In this document: in pieces, positions 51,506 to 57,535 of the stretch
How the letters are laid out: each line of letters starts with the position of its first letter
Position numbering within the stretch: position 1 is the stretch's first letter
Assembly: GCA_965250085.1 (NCBI GenBank)
Contig: OZ252287.1
Span: 1,216,001 to 1,280,000, forward strand
Length of the DNA stretch: 64,000 nt
Source: Candidatus Altimarinota bacterium
Lineage (GTDB): Bacteria > Patescibacteriota > Gracilibacteria > CAIRYL01
Direction of reading: 5' to 3'
Notes under the pieces: model-generated
Seen by the model: only the letters and a program-made list of their open reading frames with translations
What the model was told of the DNA's origin: nothing
The model's database searches: none
Program-made: the position numbers and the translations under genes

Positions 51506-52410
51506 AACTTCACAATCTCTCCAAATTCATCATAGATCTTTACTTCGGGTTCCAGCGGTACTCCAAACCCGTCTTTTACTTTCTGAGCGACTTTTTGTGC
51601 CAATGCAATCATATCTTTTTGCGTCGCACTGCCGATGTTTTGCAAAAAATTGGCATGCATTTCTGAGACCATAGCATCTCCTATGCGCTCACCTTTGACT
51701 CCTGCAGTATCCAAGAGCCAGCCGGCTGCATTTTTTGGACTTGGAAAAGCATCTGACTCCGGAGGGTTTTTAAAAAATGATCCAGAAGAAAGACCAGCGG
51801 GTTGTTTTGTTTTTCGCATTTCTATGACTTCATTACATCGCTTCTGTATTTCCTCTGGATCTCCACTAGGTGCGGTCTGTTCTGCGCTCCAGACGATCCA
51901 TTTTTTTGGTTTCGTTGTATGAAGCTTAGAATTCCGATATTCATACTCAAACCACTCGTTTGTGACGATTTCAAATTTTCCTGTTTCAACATTAAGAATT
52001 TCTGCTTCCACCAAAGTATCTCGAGCTTCCCATCCAGGAATCCCAGCGTTCCCAGTGACAGCTCCGCCCCAAGTGCCGGGAAGGGCCAGAAAGCCGGACA
52101 GGTCTTTTTTGTTTTTCTTTGCAAATTGAACCAGTTCTGAAATGAGCACTCCGCTTTCTGCCCATATGTTTTCATTTCGCATTTCCAAAGCTTTATTCTT
52201 CATTTTGAGTACCAATCCGCGCAATCCTTTATCAGAAAACAAGATGTTGGAACCTCCTCCGAAGAAAAATATTTTGAGATTGTTTTCTTTGGCAAAAAGC
52301 ACTGCTTTTTCCAAACTCTCTTTGTTGGTAATTTCAGAAAAATAATCTGCTGCTCCACCAATTCGCATGGTGGTGTGTGGCGCCAGAAAGATATTTTTCT
52401 CAATTTTCAT
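51502..52410 (-). CDS. murB: UDP-N-acetylenolpyruvoylglucosamine reductase
   Basis: TTMRIGG.A, GGGSNILF, PGT.GGAV.GNAG, YRNS, SGSFFKNP, HANF, LEPEV. Confidence 0.96.
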   Translation of the reverse strand: MKIEKNIFLAPHTTMRIGGAADYFSEITNKESLEKAVLFAKENNLKIFFFGGGSNILFSDKGLRGLVLKMKNKALEMRNENIWAESGVLISELVQFAKKNKKDLSGFLALPGTWGGAVTGNAGIPGWEARDTLVEAEILNVETGKFEIVTNEWFEYEYRNSKLHTTKPKKWIVWSAEQTAPSGDPEEIQKRCNEVIEMRKTKQPAGLSSGSFFKNPPESDAFPSPKNAAGWLLDTAGVKGERIGDAMVSEMHANFLQNIGSATQKDMIALAQKVAQKVKDGFGVPLEPEVKIYDEFGEIVKF

Positions 52411-52448
52411 TCTTCACAAGTATATCGTTTTCCCGCAGAGAAAAAAAC

Positions 52449-52477
52449 TTGCTCCTTGTGTTTTTTTCTCATACAAT
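52449..52477 (+). promoter_or_regulatory. Putative sigma70 promoter of tRNA-Asp
   Basis: TTGCTC-17 nt-TACAAT. Confidence 0.55.
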
Positions 52478-52498
52478 CTCTTGGCTTTTTAAAAGCAT

Positions 52499-52575
52499 GG
52501 AGCGGTAGTTCAGTTGGTTAGAACGCCACACTGTCACTGTGGAGGTCGCGGGTTCGAGTCCCGTCCGTTCCGCCA
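52499..52575 (+). tRNA. tRNA-Asp (anticodon GTC)
   Basis: GGAGCGG acceptor, CCACA-CTGTCAC-TGTGG anticodon arm, GGTTCGAGTCC, ends GCCA. Confidence 0.96.
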
Positions 52576-52610
52576 GCACGTGCACTAATGCCGTGCTTGT
52601 ACCCGAGATT

Positions 52611-52631
52611 CCGCATATTCATGCGGTTTTT
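52611..52631 (+). terminator. Putative intrinsic terminator after tRNA-Asp
   Basis: CCGCAT-ATTC-ATGCGG followed by TTTTT. Confidence 0.6.
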
Positions 52632-52881
52632 CTATGTTCTCAAGAAGTCCCTCAGAGACTTGCCTAAGGTTGATTTTACAAGTCTCTTAAATTGTTAGCT
52701 GATGAAGGAGGGTGAAGGTGCACTATGCGTTTTTCGAAATCATCTAATTTAAAGATGTTTTTGGAAGTTTTTGAGATGAGAAAATTTGGCTCACTTTAGG
52801 GTTCGAATCTCAAGTTATTTTTCAGAAAAAGACTTATTTGTAGATAGACAAAAAAGTCTTTAAGAATCGATTTCTAAACAA

Positions 52882-53364
52882 TTACTCAATAATCTGTGCA
52901 TTTCTCACAGAAGTAGCCAATACAGCTGACCAGGAAGCTAGTTGTCCAGAGAAATTCACGCTATCACCTTTCTGAAATCCTAATAATTTCTCTTTTGCAG
53001 AATCCGGAAAAGTAGCAATCGCATCAGATACAAATGTACTTTTGAGACATTTGACCTGTAATTGCAGTTTTCCAAATGTTTCATCAACACTGGACACTTC
53101 TCCCTCCCATTTTACCCATTTGTTTTTGTATTCTTTGAATTTCTCATCTTTTTGAAGATCAGAAAGATTACTATTCAGTCCAAATATTTCATGAAATTCA
53201 ACGCAAGATATACCTACCCACTCTTTTTCTACAGGAGAAGAGGGTGTTTCTTCTGATTGACCATTAACTCCAATAATAATGGCTATAACCAGTATGGTGG
53301 TAATAATATAGTGGCGTAAAAACCAGTTTTTCTTTTTGTTTGTAGAAGTATTTGCTTCACTCAT
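52882..53364 (-). CDS. Membrane-anchored OB-fold (tRNA_anti-like) protein
   Basis: KKNWF + TM helix; YKNKWVKWEGEVSSV...LQKGD-like FQKGDSVNFSGQL. ATG at 53364 chosen. Confidence 0.72.
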   Translation of the reverse strand: MSEANTSTNKKKNWFLRHYIITTILVIAIIIGVNGQSEETPSSPVEKEWVGISCVEFHEIFGLNSNLSDLQKDEKFKEYKNKWVKWEGEVSSVDETFGKLQLQVKCLKSTFVSDAIATFPDSAKEKLLGFQKGDSVNFSGQLASWSAVLATSVRNAQIIE

Positions 53365-53416
53365 GTGGAAAAAATGAAAGAATAAAAAAAGTTTGTACAA
53401 ATAGGGACGACCCATT

Positions 53417-53532
53417 TGGACAAACTGCCATCAGCCCTTACGAGCTTCCGAAAGTTTATGAGCCGCCCCCTCTTGCACCTTTCGGGTACGAGGAAGCGAG
53501 CTCGATAAGGAATGCCGATAGCAATTTGTCCA
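53417..53532 (-). ncRNA. Candidate structured RNA or 5' leader (~116 nt)
   Basis: Closing stem GGACAAATTGCTATCGGC / GCTGATGGCAGTTTGTCC pairs fully on the minus strand with 3 G-U wobbles; nested inner stems; starts 6 nt after a -10 box. Confidence 0.65.
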
Positions 53533-53538
53533 CCTCCA

Positions 53539-53567
53539 ATATTACGAAACACTCCTTCTGTTATCAA
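53539..53567 (-). promoter_or_regulatory. Putative sigma70 promoter for the structured RNA and OB-fold gene
   Basis: Minus strand TTGATA-17 nt-TAATAT. Confidence 0.65.
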
Positions 53568-53581
53568 GGCAAAAGAAAAAC

Positions 53582-55033
53582 TTAGAAACCATCTGGTTTG
53601 TGGGTAAAAGTTCTCAGCATCTTTTGTTTTCGAAATTTTTTACTAAGTTCGCCCAAACATAAAGAAAAAGCATCTGCGAGATCGTCATGAGATTCTTTTC
53701 CAAGGTTCACAAGTTGATTAACAAGTTCTTTAGCACCGTGTTCAGGAAAGAAGACTTTTCCACTCTGGGGGAGATGAGAAACAGCAGCTAAACGAGAATG
53801 TTTATCTCCATGTACTCTTATGGGTTTCGCAAGTAGATCGCGTTCTTTCAAATGCTCCACTACAGCAGATTGATATCCCACATCTTCGACATAAATTTGA
53901 GCTTTATGCCAACCAGAAAAACTATTCAAAAGATTACTAAGGGCATCAAGGGTTGCCAGATGAGTCATTCTTGCATTGAGAATTTGAGGCAATACATAAA
54001 ATTTATAGTTGTTTCGGTTTCCTACTACAGCAATTGGCACAGCAGCTGTGTAATCTGCTGTTTGTTTTTGAGAAATAGCTAAATCCACGCCTATGCCTAC
54101 AAACTCATAATCAAAAGTAATGCTACTATCGTAATATTGAATCCACTCAGGCCAGATGGGTCTTGCTGTAGTATTTATGATTCGCAAAAGATATTCTCTG
54201 TACCAAGATTCATCACTGCCTACGTTTCTCCTCAGACGCAGAAGCCCTTGCTCGGAAAAACGTTCTGGCCATAAACAATCTTCAGATTTATTAATTAATG
54301 GATATTCTCGTACCTCTGCATCAATTTCATTATTTTGTGCTTTGTGAATAAATCTCATCATTACTGAATCGTCATGGAGTAGATTTCCCACCATTATAAG
54401 TCGAGTTCCTTCGTTCCCGGCAGGTATGACTTCTCCAGTCAGAAATAAAAAAGTTTTGTCTCTGCTTTCTTTTGTTTTTACAGAAGAGATATCTTCAATA
54501 TCATCACAAATAATTAAATCGGGCCGATGTTCTTTGTGTCGAACTCCTCGCAAACTCTGTTCAGTAGAAGCTGCCAATATTTTTGCTTCATATTTGGCGA
54601 GAACAAGTGAGTTTTGACTCCACTCAGCATTGCGAGTAAACAAAGGTCCAAAATCTCTTCGTAAAAGTTCATTCTGTTCTAATTCTTCACGAATATTCTT
54701 GAGCAGCAACTGTGCCTGTTGTTGAGTCTGAGAAAGCAACACTATAAAATTTTTTTGTTGTTTTCCCAAAATACTCCAGAGCAAATATGAAAGAGTAATG
54801 ATAGTTGATTTTGCAGATCCTCGAAATGCCATGAGGAGAAATGTCTGCACACTCTCATCTTCAATTATTCTAAAAATCTCGTGATGGAATTCTGCCAGTG
54901 GATACTTGATATAATGAGAAAAATAAGTAGAAAAAAAGAGCAGAAAGCTTTCGTAAACTGCAGCCTTGCGAGTGCGAGGATGCTGAAGAGTTTGGAGTAA
55001 TTCGCCTTGAGATATTTGTGAGTTATTCATCAT
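53582..55033 (-). CDS. Phage terminase large subunit
   Basis: FRGSAKST (Walker A), LIICDDIED (Walker B), VGN coupling motif; nuclease GVDLA, DYTA, VEDVGYQ, GDKHSRL, HDDLADA. Confidence 0.92.
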   Translation of the reverse strand: MMNNSQISQGELLQTLQHPRTRKAAVYESFLLFFSTYFSHYIKYPLAEFHHEIFRIIEDESVQTFLLMAFRGSAKSTIITLSYLLWSILGKQQKNFIVLLSQTQQQAQLLLKNIREELEQNELLRRDFGPLFTRNAEWSQNSLVLAKYEAKILAASTEQSLRGVRHKEHRPDLIICDDIEDISSVKTKESRDKTFLFLTGEVIPAGNEGTRLIMVGNLLHDDSVMMRFIHKAQNNEIDAEVREYPLINKSEDCLWPERFSEQGLLRLRRNVGSDESWYREYLLRIINTTARPIWPEWIQYYDSSITFDYEFVGIGVDLAISQKQTADYTAAVPIAVVGNRNNYKFYVLPQILNARMTHLATLDALSNLLNSFSGWHKAQIYVEDVGYQSAVVEHLKERDLLAKPIRVHGDKHSRLAAVSHLPQSGKVFFPEHGAKELVNQLVNLGKESHDDLADAFSLCLGELSKKFRKQKMLRTFTHKPDGF

Positions 55034-55478
55034 CTGAAGGTATGTTTAAGGACTGGTTTGATTCATTCGTTTCTTGCTTCTGGGGAAGCACGAGAGAAAT
55101 GGCTGCGGCAACCTTTTGCTGCTGTTCTTCCGTGAGTGGAGCTGGTTTTTCTAAAGATGCACTTACTTCTACTCGTTGGCGATATGCATGGTGACGGTTC
55201 TTAAGCCAAAAAATTATAGAAGTAATATTTCCTTCTTGAATAGCACTCAGAAGTTTAGATTCCGTCATATCATTCATCATCGCCACTCCATCTTGAAGCG
55301 CTATATCAGAGGTATCCATGAAAGAAGCATCTTCTTCTCTCCAGCGATAATAGGTGGCACGAGAAATACCTGCTTTTTCACAAGCAACTTGTACAATCGG
55401 AATCTTTCTGAGATATCCAAGAAGAATTTCTTGTTTCTGCTCGGTTTTAGCGACGACTGATTTCGTTTTTTTTGGCAT
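55023..55478 (-). CDS. Putative terminase small subunit (HTH)
   Basis: ACEKAGISRATYYRW...F, ESKL...I, SIIFWLKNR; directly upstream of and overlapping terL. Confidence 0.82.
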   Translation of the reverse strand: MPKKTKSVVAKTEQKQEILLGYLRKIPIVQVACEKAGISRATYYRWREEDASFMDTSDIALQDGVAMMNDMTESKLLSAIQEGNITSIIFWLKNRHHAYRQRVEVSASLEKPAPLTEEQQQKVAAAISLVLPQKQETNESNQSLNIPSDDE

Positions 55479-55503
55479 ATTGTATAAAAGAAAGAACAAA
55501 AAA

Positions 55504-56292
55504 TTATTGAACGAGTACCGCTTTCTGTTGAGTGAGTTTTTCCCAACGCTGAATAATTACCTCACAATAATGGGCATCAAGTTCCATCATCAAACACTTT
55601 CTCTGCGTTTGTTCGCAAGCCAGTAAAGTAGACCCTGAACCTCCAAATGGGTCACAAACAACTCCTCCTATTTGAGAGCTATTCAAAATTAATCTGCGAA
55701 GGAGCGAGATTGGTTTCATGGTAGGATGAAGCGTGCTCTTTTGTGGGCGTGGACAAAATAATACACTTCTGTCTGAACTCTTTTGGAAAGCATGTTTTCC
55801 TTTCCATCCATAGAGTATGAGTTCATGTTGGGGGTTATAATCAAGTCTACTCATAACCGCATTATTTTTTACCCAGAGAAGCAATTGAGAAATATGCATC
55901 CCCAGTTCTGTCACAGCATCTCGTAATGAGAAAACCATGCGGTCGGTATTGAAAATATAGAAACTGTTTGTCTTCGATAAATATGGAGACAGATTATTGA
56001 GCCACTGCCGTGAGAAGTGCTTATATTCGCCTGTACTCTGCAAGTGGTCGTTGGCAATAATCTTATGTTTTTTCTGGTTCATAAAATCTTGTTTTGCTTC
56101 CACAACAGCTACTCCATAGGGCGGGTCAGTAAGCAACAAATCAATCTTGTGTTTCTCACAAAGTAGCCTCATGTGTTCGGTATTTGTCGCATCTCCGCAG
56201 AAAAGGTGATGTTCACCGAGTTGCCAGATTTGTCCCATCTGAGTTTTGGATTTAGTTGATTTTTCTTGGCGTGTTGCCAGTGAGTTCTTCAT
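55504..56292 (-). CDS. Phage-type N6/N4 DNA methyltransferase (beta class)
   Basis: IWQLGEHHLFCGD, TDPPYG, HPTMKP, DPFGGSGST. Confidence 0.92.
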   Translation of the reverse strand: MKNSLATRQEKSTKSKTQMGQIWQLGEHHLFCGDATNTEHMRLLCEKHKIDLLLTDPPYGVAVVEAKQDFMNQKKHKIIANDHLQSTGEYKHFSRQWLNNLSPYLSKTNSFYIFNTDRMVFSLRDAVTELGMHISQLLLWVKNNAVMSRLDYNPQHELILYGWKGKHAFQKSSDRSVLFCPRPQKSTLHPTMKPISLLRRLILNSSQIGGVVCDPFGGSGSTLLACEQTQRKCLMMELDAHYCEVIIQRWEKLTQQKAVLVQ

Positions 56293-57535
56293 AGCGAGAA
56301 AGGATAAGAGAACAAAAGCGGGGATCGATTTCCATCAGATATGCAGTGCGTTGTAACTGTTCACAGGCAATTAAAGTTGAACCAGATCCTCCAAAAAGAT
56401 CCAAAACAAGATTACCAACCTTACTACATCTCAAGAGAGGCTTTTGCAGAAGTTGTGGTGGCTTTTGAGTAGGATGTTGGTACTCATTAGCTGGTAAACG
56501 TTTTACCAGCCAGATATTCAGCAAATCGAGAATATCTTCAGCAGTACGATTGCCAGTTTCTATCTCTGGATTCATGACTTCGTGTAAGTTGTTGTGTTTG
56601 GTGTTCAAATAAGGCTTGCCTCTAATGCTATACACACATGGCTCATAGATTTTATTGAACGCTATTTTAGGGGTCGCATTTTGATTATTCTTGATCCAAA
56701 GACAGACACGTTTATTCGTGAGTCCTGATTTCTCAGCTAACGATTGAAGAAGTCCAATATACTGCTCATCACACCACCAAAAACTATGACAATCTTGGTG
56801 GCAATATTTCAGTCCAACTTCCAGTGCTGTGTATAAGAAATCAGAGTATTCAGCTTTTGATTTCCCATCGTTCACTTCACTCTTGCTGTATTGTCTCTTG
56901 CCACCTATGCCAGCACTATAGTCCAGTCCGATGTTATACGGCGGATCACAAAAAAGAACATCTGATTTCTTCTTCTGCATAAGCTTTGAGACATCTTCTG
57001 CGCTTGTGGAATCTCCGCACATCAGACGGTGCCTTCCAAGGGTATAAATATCGCCAAGCTTTACCGTTACTTCCCCGAGTTCTTCAAATTTTTCTTCCAT
57101 ATCGAATTTATCATCTTCAATGGATAACAGATCTGACCAAATAGTTCCAAGGTCACTCTCATCAAAACCAATATCCAGAAGAAGGTTCATGTCAAATTTC
57201 TTCAAGAGTTCAAAATCCCATTTGCCTGTATTTCTATTAAGACGAAGATTGAGTTCTTTTTCTTTCTCAATATTTGAGATATTCAGAAAAACAACAGGGA
57301 CATCTTCCATGCCCAGTCTTTTGGCGACTTCCAAACGAAAATGTCCGCCAATGACAACATTCTTTCGTTGCTTGGCTTTGTTTACAAGAATTGGATCAAC
57401 AAATCCAAACTTCTTGATACTTTCTATCAGATACTTCATATCTCCTGCTCCCCATTTACGTGGATTATAGGGAGCGGGATTGAGGTCAGAGATGCTGACT
57501 TGATGGATAGTCGGTTTATTTTTGAAATAGTTCAT
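56252..57535 (-). CDS. ParB-N domain / N6-N4 DNA methyltransferase fusion
   Basis: L.PAPYNPR, SIKKFGFVDPI, IGGHFR (ParB/Srx); CDPPYN, HPTQKP, DLFGGSGST. Confidence 0.93.
   Translation of the reverse strand: MNYFKNKPTIHQVSISDLNPAPYNPRKWGAGDMKYLIESIKKFGFVDPILVNKAKQRKNVVIGGHFRLEVAKRLGMEDVPVVFLNISNIEKEKELNLRLNRNTGKWDFELLKKFDMNLLLDIGFDESDLGTIWSDLLSIEDDKFDMEEKFEELGEVTVKLGDIYTLGRHRLMCGDSTSAEDVSKLMQKKKSDVLFCDPPYNIGLDYSAGIGGKRQYSKSEVNDGKSKAEYSDFLYTALEVGLKYCHQDCHSFWWCDEQYIGLLQSLAEKSGLTNKRVCLWIKNNQNATPKIAFNKIYEPCVYSIRGKPYLNTKHNNLHEVMNPEIETGNRTAEDILDLLNIWLVKRLPANEYQHPTQKPPQLLQKPLLRCSKVGNLVLDLFGGSGSTLIACEQLQRTAYLMEIDPRFCSLILSRYEELTGNTPRKIN

Follow-up and report, generated by a model that had tools for sequence, protein, structure and literature searches.

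Comparative analysis of a 64,000-nt stretch of the Candidatus Altimarinota bacterium genome (assembly GCA_965250085.1, contig OZ252287.1, positions 1,216,001 to 1,280,000; hereafter the window, in whose numbering coordinates are given) revealed that the intergenic element at positions 53417–53567, minus strand, belongs to a set of 21 similarly built copies in 19 genomes of the same phylum. In our judgement there is an even chance that the element represents one copy of an undescribed, promoter-proximal 5′ leader RNA family, acting in cis as a terminator/antiterminator leader of genes carried by mobile elements. Each copy combines a promoter-like site, a long hairpin, and two short boxes, here named X and Y, whose pairing competes with the hairpin directly upstream of a gene.

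In the window copy (copy 1), a -35-like hexamer TTGATA (53562–53567, minus strand), weakly conserved among the copies, is separated by a 17-nt spacer from a -10-like hexamer TAATAT (53539–53544), and the base of the hairpin follows 6 nt further on. This confirms the promoter and stem arrangement that an original prediction, made from the sequence alone, had described. The long irregular hairpin, termed state A, spans 116 nt (53417–53532) and was delimited by folding and covariation. It is closed by stem P1, in which 53514–53532 pair with 53417–53435; the three G-U pairs described earlier for this stem were recovered, although its length was counted as 19 rather than 18 pairs. Beyond P1 lies a 3-nt loop, then a helix of 11 pairs in which one base is bulged, then the inner helix CGCUUCCUC/GAGGGGGCG; the cap is GUACC-CGAAA-GGUGC, and a 17-nt bulge lies on the 3′ side. 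The inner helix and the cap, both of which use G-U pairs as had been proposed, are part of the minimum-energy fold. The hairpin comprises 44 pairs, including 6 G-U and no other non-standard pair.

The fold is strongly strand-specific. On the minus strand the hairpin reaches -63.6 kcal/mol (z -7.89), a stability matched by none of 200 shuffled sequences, versus only -45.5 kcal/mol (z -4.97) for the plus-strand complement, a difference of 18 kcal/mol. Its G+C content is approximately 0.5, compared with approximately 0.35 in the surrounding sequence. Between the end of the stem at 53417 and the ATG at 53364 lie 52 nt, exactly as originally stated.

Box X, GGGGCGGCUC, occupies 53460–53469 and in the window copy is contributed by the 3′ strand of the inner helix and the beginning of the 17-nt bulge. 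Box Y, GGGUCGUCCC, lies at 53404–53413, 3 nt past the hairpin, and is unpaired in state A. The two boxes match over 10 consecutive pairs, and Y can pair with the 3′ arm of P1 as well. The X:Y helix is excluded as long as X is held in the tip hairpin (in the inner helix, for copies 1 and 2), and a compact fold with the hairpin and X:Y present together was rejected, as by rough geometry the linkers would probably be too short. The earlier idea of a switchable leader is supported as to the switch itself, although not as to the segments named: the conserved alternatives are X:Y and the pairing of the 3′ arm with Y, whereas the proposed CCUUAUCGAGCU/GCUCAUAA pairing, visible by eye in the window copy, retains only about four pairs in the second copy and is not a conserved pairing.

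A BLAST search with the element, the route to homologs suggested by the original prediction, identified nothing beyond the element itself in its own genome, 60 relatives and a phage collection; relatives came from covariance models and a sequence pattern. A covariance model built from copy 1 alone (R1) detected a second copy in the host genome (G000:C1:782795-782921, 59 bits, E 3e-10), 486 kb from the first, and no relative in 19 other genomes of the host’s order. The two copies resemble each other (73% identity over 169 columns, E 5e-14) only along 164 nt that begin shortly ahead of the -10 box and reach the U-run (53397–53560, minus strand, aligned with G000:C1:782781-782944), and the flanking genes differ. 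Within 7 kb on either side, the only other blastn match was 25 nt long at E 0.001, tblastx detected no similarity, and the proteins encoded downstream are unrelated (E 8.9).

Copy 2 has its own promoter-like site, read by eye as TTGCTC with an 18-nt spacer, and its fold likewise favours the gene strand (-61.6 versus -45.8). It stands before a lipoprotein-like gene in an island that contains a large serine recombinase beside tRNA-Gln, a resolvase, a DDE transposase and an HTH-SocA gene. Boxes X and Y are identical in the two copies. Across the aligned hairpins, 98.8% of cells are paired and 14 of the 44 pairs are changed on both sides, a result reached by none of 500 shuffles; five of these double changes fall in the gapless closing stem. 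A protein-coding interpretation was rejected, since several short indels between the copies shift every reading frame.

R1 and a second model built from copies 1 and 2 (R2) found no match in four TerL-related loci, 150 genomes of the class and 150 genomes of the phylum; some of these class genomes later proved to bear copies, so both models were too narrow. Among viral contigs, motifs specific to copies 1 and 2 yielded 110, 1 and 110 stretches, and scoring of 80 and 81 loci produced no match; two later viral scans returned two chance matches and then none. In metagenome contigs, a strict copy-1/2 pattern gave no hits, and a looser one gave at least 120 stretches, 80 loci of which were scored by R2 with no match, and nhmmer over all retrieved loci also matched none; these metagenome scans relied on copy-1/2-specific motifs and predate the family-wide pattern. 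Copy 3 was reached through the downstream protein, a weak N-terminal homolog of which (47% over 46 residues) is encoded in genome G036; the hairpin preceding that gene on the same strand folds at -64.5 (z -7.1), versus -55.1 on the other strand. Copy 4, in G496, was found with a pattern combining the CUGAUG motif of the 3′ arm with box Y and lies directly before a large serine recombinase gene.

The family-wide pattern (GGGGCRRYY, 34–58 nt, GGTYGTCCC) matched 20 places in 18 of 401 class genomes, compared with four matches for the reversed control pattern; in the phylum sample, it matched 7 of 185 other genomes versus five control matches. Each match was folded and scored with a third model, R3, built from four typical copies. 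The 21 accepted copies comprise 19 in 17 genomes of the class, the host genome counted, and two in other classes (G263 and G159). A model derived from close copies had missed the family, while a pattern derived from the two competing boxes found it. As copies beyond the fourth were found only through the X/Y pattern, and members with other boxes would go unseen, the prevalence is a lower bound.

A number of candidate loci were rejected. In the first class scan, L363, L364, L367 and L369–L372 were classed as chance matches. In family f9, all loci except that in G496 were dismissed, the best other 5′-arm match being 11 of 13 positions and L382 and L379 lying inside an open reading frame (ORF). 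Loci L412, L426, L427, L429, L430 and L432 from later scans failed on folding and R3 scoring; L412 and L427, with CA in X and UCG in Y, would have A-C at a covarying pair. At L426 (G272:C2:670-724), X and Y simply make up a hairpin of 20 pairs, and no long hairpin precedes it; this locus could represent a relative reduced to the minimum, or just a common terminator.

The accepted copies share a common plan. In 15 of the 21, a script located a -10-like TANNNT hexamer that precedes the outermost helix by 3–10 nt; in the remaining six, the computed helix over-ran the promoter and the hexamer is visible by eye. The hairpin is 85–149 nt long, and in most copies its tip, judged by eye, has the form GGG-GNRA-CC(C), that is, box X. 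The consensus is GGGGCRRYY for box X and GGUYGUCCC (in copies 1–4, GG(G)UYGUCCC) for box Y, which follows the hairpin after a linker of 0–10 nt. At least four U occur within 8 nt after Y in 19 of 21 copies. A start codon lies 7–86 nt past Y in the 18 copies read by script, and within 7–49 nt in 17 of these; the starts in G263 and G159 were read from the sequence, and the contig of the G100 copy ends 5 nt after Y. The leader has the orientation of the next gene in all 20 copies with a readable gene. All 21 sense hairpins are more stable than their antisense counterparts, with a mean difference of 8.7 kcal/mol, and G-U pairs account for 87 of 907 pairs; the strand-specific structured RNA described at the outset is thereby upheld across the family.

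Copies 1 and 2 are tied to the rest by the X/Y boxes, by the CUGAUG motif of the 3′ arm, which copies 3 and 4 also have, by a start-region motif shared with copy 3, and by the homologous downstream gene in G036. A family-like inner fold with X at the tip was considered for these two copies and rejected, as it lies 10.6 and 11.8 kcal/mol above their respective minimum-energy folds. A short ORF starting at the conserved AUG of CUGAUG was also considered for copies 1–4. By eye it runs for 24 codons in copy 1, 24 in copy 3 and 18 in copy 4, and in copy 2 it shares the reading frame of the gene; it was discarded because a U-rich composition makes open frames likely.

Covariation was assessed separately for the hairpin and the X:Y helix. 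For the hairpin, the R3 structure was written by hand from the alignment of the four typical copies, and 13 copies, 12 of them outside the seed, were aligned. In this alignment 89.8% of 453 cells pair, compared with 60.2% in shuffles and 33–41% when the partners are slid, and 34 of 38 pairs are changed on both sides; homologs with compensatory changes, which the original prediction had called for, were thus found. All 11 pairs of P1 are changed with 97% of cells paired, as are all 12 pairs of the distal helix with 92% paired.

For X:Y, copies 1–4 have 10, 10, 9 and 10 consecutive pairs, runs reached in 20, 11, 76 and 2 of 2000 dinucleotide shuffles of the upstream sequence, respectively. On a MAFFT alignment of 19 copies, RNAalifold predicts the X:Y helix and no other, and 98.4% of 189 cells pair, a value reached by none of 500 shuffles and compared with 43–65% in slid controls. 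Five of the X:Y pairs are fixed by the search pattern and hence uninformative. At the pair that the pattern leaves free (R x Y), A-U occurs in 13 copies and G-C in six, with no A-C and no G-U; at the pair lying outside the pattern, U-A occurs in seven, C-G in six, G-C in one, U-G in one, other combinations in three and a gap in one. One G-U pair is kept in 19 of 19 copies. Judged from the sequences, covariation supports both the hairpin and the X:Y helix as alternatives that would exclude one another. The structures, their conservation and their mutual exclusion form the established part of the present account.

The second competing pairing, between the 3′ arm of P1 and Y, was scored as a local hairpin with at least six of nine Y bases paired and an energy of at most -6 kcal/mol. 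It was present in 16 of 21 copies, typically with 8–9 GC-rich pairs and a 5–7-nt loop followed by CUUUUG. Together with the U-run, such a hairpin has the predicted shape of an intrinsic terminator, and its formation would require the foot of P1 to be open. The window copy instead has a 35-nt hairpin (53425–53391), built from the last 9 nt of the 3′ arm, Y and a downstream ACAAAC; with the U7 run at 53384–53390 it forms a terminator-like feature at 53384–53425 (minus strand; -15 kcal/mol, z -5.9), which a generic terminator scan did not call.

Computed energies place state A of copy 1 at -67.6 and its 3′-arm:Y terminator state at -62.8, that is, 4.8 kcal/mol above; in a longer transcript, state A is at -74.8 and X:Y at -60.2. 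The corresponding values for copy 2 are -66.3 and -55.3, and -67.3 and -50.9 for the longer transcript. In copy 3, state A is at -62.7 and X:Y at -48.8. In copy 4, state A, computed on a shorter segment, is at about -44, and X:Y, at -53.8, is the minimum-energy fold.

Based on these structures, we infer where transcription starts and ends, the direction of control, and the existence of a trigger. The leaders would stand ahead of the cargo genes or end genes of integrated mobile elements, in Patescibacteria-like bacteria with small genomes, with transcription starting at the foot of the long hairpin in state A. As long as the hairpin is intact, it would withhold the 3′ arm of P1, and transcription would read through; if Y paired with the 3′ arm, the resulting terminator-like hairpin would switch the gene off. 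X:Y, the third conserved pairing, would also keep Y from the terminator, or may represent the sensing step. The leader would thereby set, in cis, the amount of transcript reaching the downstream gene, in the window the gene of a membrane-anchored protein at 52882–53364. A cis-acting attenuator is the simplest account, given the promoter, the 3′ arm shared with a terminator-like hairpin, the U-run, and the adjacent start codon. No antisense promoter was found on the opposite strand of the window element, and no partner gene was found.

Several points weigh against this reading. The transcription start, the 3′ end and termination are predictions, and the promoter match alone is not above chance (three sites in 2 kb versus 4.2 ± 2.2 in shuffles), so its weight derives from conservation in the related copies rather than from the consensus match itself. 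The search pattern behind copies 5–21 prescribes most of X and Y, and the alignment of the hairpin was made to fit R3; the figures consequently lean towards the structures, an effect bounded for the hairpin by the slid controls. Copies 1 and 2 are atypical: their X is part of a helix strand rather than of a GNRA tip, and neither copy is picked up by R3 at E <= 0.01. The local 3′-arm:Y criterion failed in 5 of 21 copies, the window copy among them. State A is ahead of its alternatives by 5–16 kcal/mol in copies 1–3, which implies that switching would need a factor; with X:Y being the minimum-energy fold in copy 4, the balance of states also differs between copies. Finally, the downstream genes share no pathway and hence suggest no ligand.

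Four other explanations were weighed. The RNA could be a stand-alone small RNA of approximately 140 nt that ends at the U-run after Y and acts in trans, via its exposed boxes, on other RNAs such as the leaders of other copies; the downstream gene would then be a mere neighbour or be reached by read-through. The conserved unit in the host genome does have the -10 box and the U-run as its exact limits, state A leaves Y unpaired, and the boxes, identical in both host copies and similar across genomes, would make pairing in trans possible. Nevertheless, we consider this explanation unlikely: a start codon 7–49 nt past Y in 17 of 18 copies leaves little or no room for another promoter, so the RNA would be the 5′ end of the gene’s transcript unless termination were complete, and the orientation matches that of the gene in every readable copy. 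We find it still harder to credit that the hairpin is a passive 5′-terminal stabiliser or an RNase III processing site with no regulated switch. Lying 5–7 nt after the -10 box, it would form the extreme 5′ terminus of the predicted RNA, in copies 1–3 state A far exceeds the other folds in stability, and helices of 11–19 pairs are of the size of RNase III substrates; even so, a passive hairpin leaves unexplained the covarying X:Y helix, the 3′-arm:Y hairpin with its U-run, and the conserved G-U pairs.

Very improbable, in our view, is an element acting at the level of DNA or single-stranded DNA, such as a recombination site, a single-strand origin, an attC-like site or a small palindromic mobile element. 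Single-stranded DNA, too, allows strand-specific G-T pairs, the arms of an inverted repeat may covary if both are bound by the same protein, and the copies sit in mobile elements, 2 of the 21 beside serine recombinase genes. However, a DNA element does not account for a -10 box at a fixed distance with a U-run and a start codon after the hairpin, nor for covariation that runs through every nested helix instead of the ends alone; the host genome holds only two copies, 486 kb apart and with no arrays, and Y does not fit the integron attC core, GTTRRRY. The suggested likeness to phage immunity RNAs of the P4 CI or P1 C4 kind was not supported by the analysis, and we regard such an identity as scarcely credible. 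Only the position in a phage-derived island beside terL speaks for it; no Rfam model matched over the hairpin at E <= 10, the island consists of terS, terL and two methylases with no other phage genes in view, and the other copies directly precede varied cargo genes, including integrases, nucleases and surface proteins, rather than lying in an immunity region.

Known RNA classes were compared with Rfam 15 (4227 models, including pRNA, C4, SRP, 6S, Y RNA, riboswitches and self-cleaving ribozymes). At the gathering score, the whole window yielded three tRNAs only, and nothing was reported over the hairpin when the region 52300–53800 was searched at E <= 10. Copies 3 and 4 gave no match at E <= 0.01, and 16 further loci (15 accepted copies and L412) gave only three tRNAs at E <= 0.1. 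The element thus passed the Rfam check proposed for it and stands as undescribed with respect to that collection; in the portions of the literature on structured RNAs, riboswitches and antiterminators of Patescibacteria and the Candidate Phyla Radiation that were consulted, no such RNA was found.

The closest resemblance is to terminator/antiterminator leaders, i.e., attenuators and transcriptional ‘ON’ riboswitches. As in these, the element lies between a promoter and an ORF, a GC-rich hairpin is directly followed by a U-run, and an exclusive upstream pairing shares the terminator strand, with the 3′ arm of the closing helix able to pair with the 5′ arm or, alternatively, with a segment further downstream, here Y; one leader class also stands before unrelated genes. 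It differs in that the putative sensor is a single 85–149-nt hairpin rather than a multi-helix junction, the closing stem is long (11–19 pairs), a third conserved pairing joins the hairpin tip to the terminator strand, and the genes belong to mobile elements rather than to one pathway. The plasmid rep leaders of pT181, pIP501 and pAMbeta1 are controlled by antisense-RNA-driven attenuation. They are similarly leaders of mobile elements in which the default fold prevents a downstream terminator and disruption on the 5′ side would release it; unlike them, the window element has no detectable countertranscript promoter opposite, and the genes following the present family are not replication genes. 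The put RNAs of phage HK022 are two short stem-loops that act on RNA polymerase in processive antitermination. They too are promoter-proximal structured RNAs of a phage-derived element with a terminator-like site after them, whereas here one strand is shared by two competing helices; similarity to put was compared by the Rfam scan alone. P4 CI and P1 C4 share with the element the character of a small structured RNA in a phage-derived region, but there is no match in sequence or structure, size and position differ, and no sign of the features of those systems was seen.

Other classes were considered and set aside. A classical riboswitch is expected before genes of one pathway, in contrast to the recombinases, candidate defence nucleases, and SLH, secreted and small membrane proteins encoded here. 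Integron attC sites were rejected on the two distant copies with no arrays and on nearby recombinases of the serine rather than the tyrosine type, and small palindromic mobile elements (MITE, Correia-like) on the finding of one copy by BLAST and two, at 73% identity, by covariance model. Bacterial SRP RNA was dismissed because neither RF00169 nor RF01854 matched over the element and no relative of it was found by BLAST in 60 related genomes or by R1 in the 19 other genomes of its order, and phi29-type pRNA was dropped for want of an Rfam match. No reverse transcriptase was noted among the annotated proteins beside copies 1 and 2, which speaks against a retron, no dedicated search having been made.

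A more specific proposal, which we put forward as a possibility but a rather unlikely one, is that the family constitutes a class of sensor RNAs used by mobile elements of Patescibacteria, either a riboswitch or a protein- or RNA-responsive riboregulator. Presented by the long hairpin, the GNRA-capped box would compete with the closing stem for the terminator strand, and the result would make the output of integrase, defence nuclease and surface protein genes depend on a signal. Such a signal could be the state of the host or the presence of a related element, and it could include the pairing of copies with one another in trans.

The genes following the copies are varied. Large serine recombinases occur after two copies (G496 and G147), and PD-(D/E)XK-like proteins matching the PADLOC candidate families PDC-S11 and S18 in G362 and G500; downstream of both G338 copies, the N-termini are by eye near-identical to those of the PD-(D/E)XK-like proteins. 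SLH or secreted proteins follow three copies (G516, G404 and G398, the last also with an SNase domain) and zinc-ribbon membrane proteins follow two (G113 and G459). Further copies precede other small membrane proteins, the lipoprotein of copy 2, the OB-fold-like anchor protein of the window, and a truncated version of the latter in G036; this tally leaves out G100, whose contig ends before any gene, as well as G263 and G159. Among 17 other loci, three have a tRNA gene no more than 1.5 kb away, and both host-genome copies also have one nearby, giving 5 of the 19 loci checked. The original suggestion of a moron regulator fits in that the genes are of mobile-element type and varied, although a position at the end of an element, as indicated by a tRNA, is seen for few copies.

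Almost nothing is known about gene regulation in ultra-small, mostly uncultured bacteria and their mobile elements. A leader with its own promoter-like site, common to integrase, candidate defence and cell-surface genes, would offer a testable handle on gene timing. It also adds a candidate orphan regulatory RNA class missed by current RNA libraries.

The host genome is a single contig of 1.37 Mb with 40% G+C; its relatives range from 0.6 to 2 Mb. In the window, the element is flanked upstream by the terminase large subunit gene terL (53582–55033, minus strand; phrog_38 at 9e-80, Terminase_6C), and further upstream on the same strand lie terS (55023–55499) and two N6/N4 methylases, one of them fused to ParB. 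No portal, capsid or tail genes are in view around terL, and the locus is an island or remnant rather than a whole prophage. TerL relatives at 42–44% identity occur in assemblies labelled Uhrbacteria and Saccharibacteria and in one labelled Gammaproteobacteria, which suggests a Patescibacteria-like lineage for the host. The methylase–terS–terL cassette (53582–57535, minus strand) may represent a satellite-like or domesticated packaging module. Two loci with TerL at 44% identity (L009 and L011) have the same order, namely an ORF of 264–290 aa, a 137-aa ORF in the terS position, and terL, with opposite-strand genes directly after terL. On a Saccharibacteria-labelled contig (L010, 4850–5138), a serine recombinase gene was seen by eye approximately 70 nt after terL on the same strand, which favours the idea that terS–terL islands of this kind have a recombinase at their end. 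In genome G120 (L361, 2236–2290, minus strand), a GC-rich hairpin capped by a GAAA loop comes after terL, and then an opposite-strand HTH gene and an OB-fold-like membrane protein, an order resembling that of the window but lacking the leader RNA.

Downstream of the element, the 52882–53364 ORF (minus strand) encodes a 160-aa protein with an N-terminal membrane anchor and possibly an OB fold. It has no Pfam, PHROG or PADLOC match; a tRNA_anti-like OB fold, with an Atlas score of 0.91, is a lead only. Shine–Dalgarno sequences are scarce in the host genome (GGAG, GAGG or AGGA at -20 to -4 in 7% of 550 long ORFs), and positions -16 to -4 of its start regions are rich in U and poor in G. The U-rich sequence leading up to the ATG at 53364 is therefore a normal start region for a genome that does not use Shine–Dalgarno sequences. 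A tRNA-Asp gene (52499–52575, plus strand) is a possible integration site of the island, and no repeat of its 3′ end was detected within the window. A tRNA T-arm-like sequence, GGGTTCGAATCTC, at 52795–52812 (plus strand), approximately 225 nt after tRNA-Asp, may be a remnant of an attachment-site duplication.

Two further observations concern the host genome as a whole. The Rfam SRP models RF00169 and RF01854 found no match in it, although the assembly is 97% complete and in a single contig; RF00169 was detected in 0 of 21 genomes (the host and 20 relatives), while controls were found in 12 of 14 genomes, and the SRP RNA of this lineage has either diverged strongly or escaped the first-look filter. 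Outside the window, eight occurrences of CTTTCGGA are spaced 111 bases apart at G000:C1:522140-522924, and a second motif, GCTGATGG, recurs every 672 bases at 284324–289697 of the same genome; both are probably coding tandem repeats.

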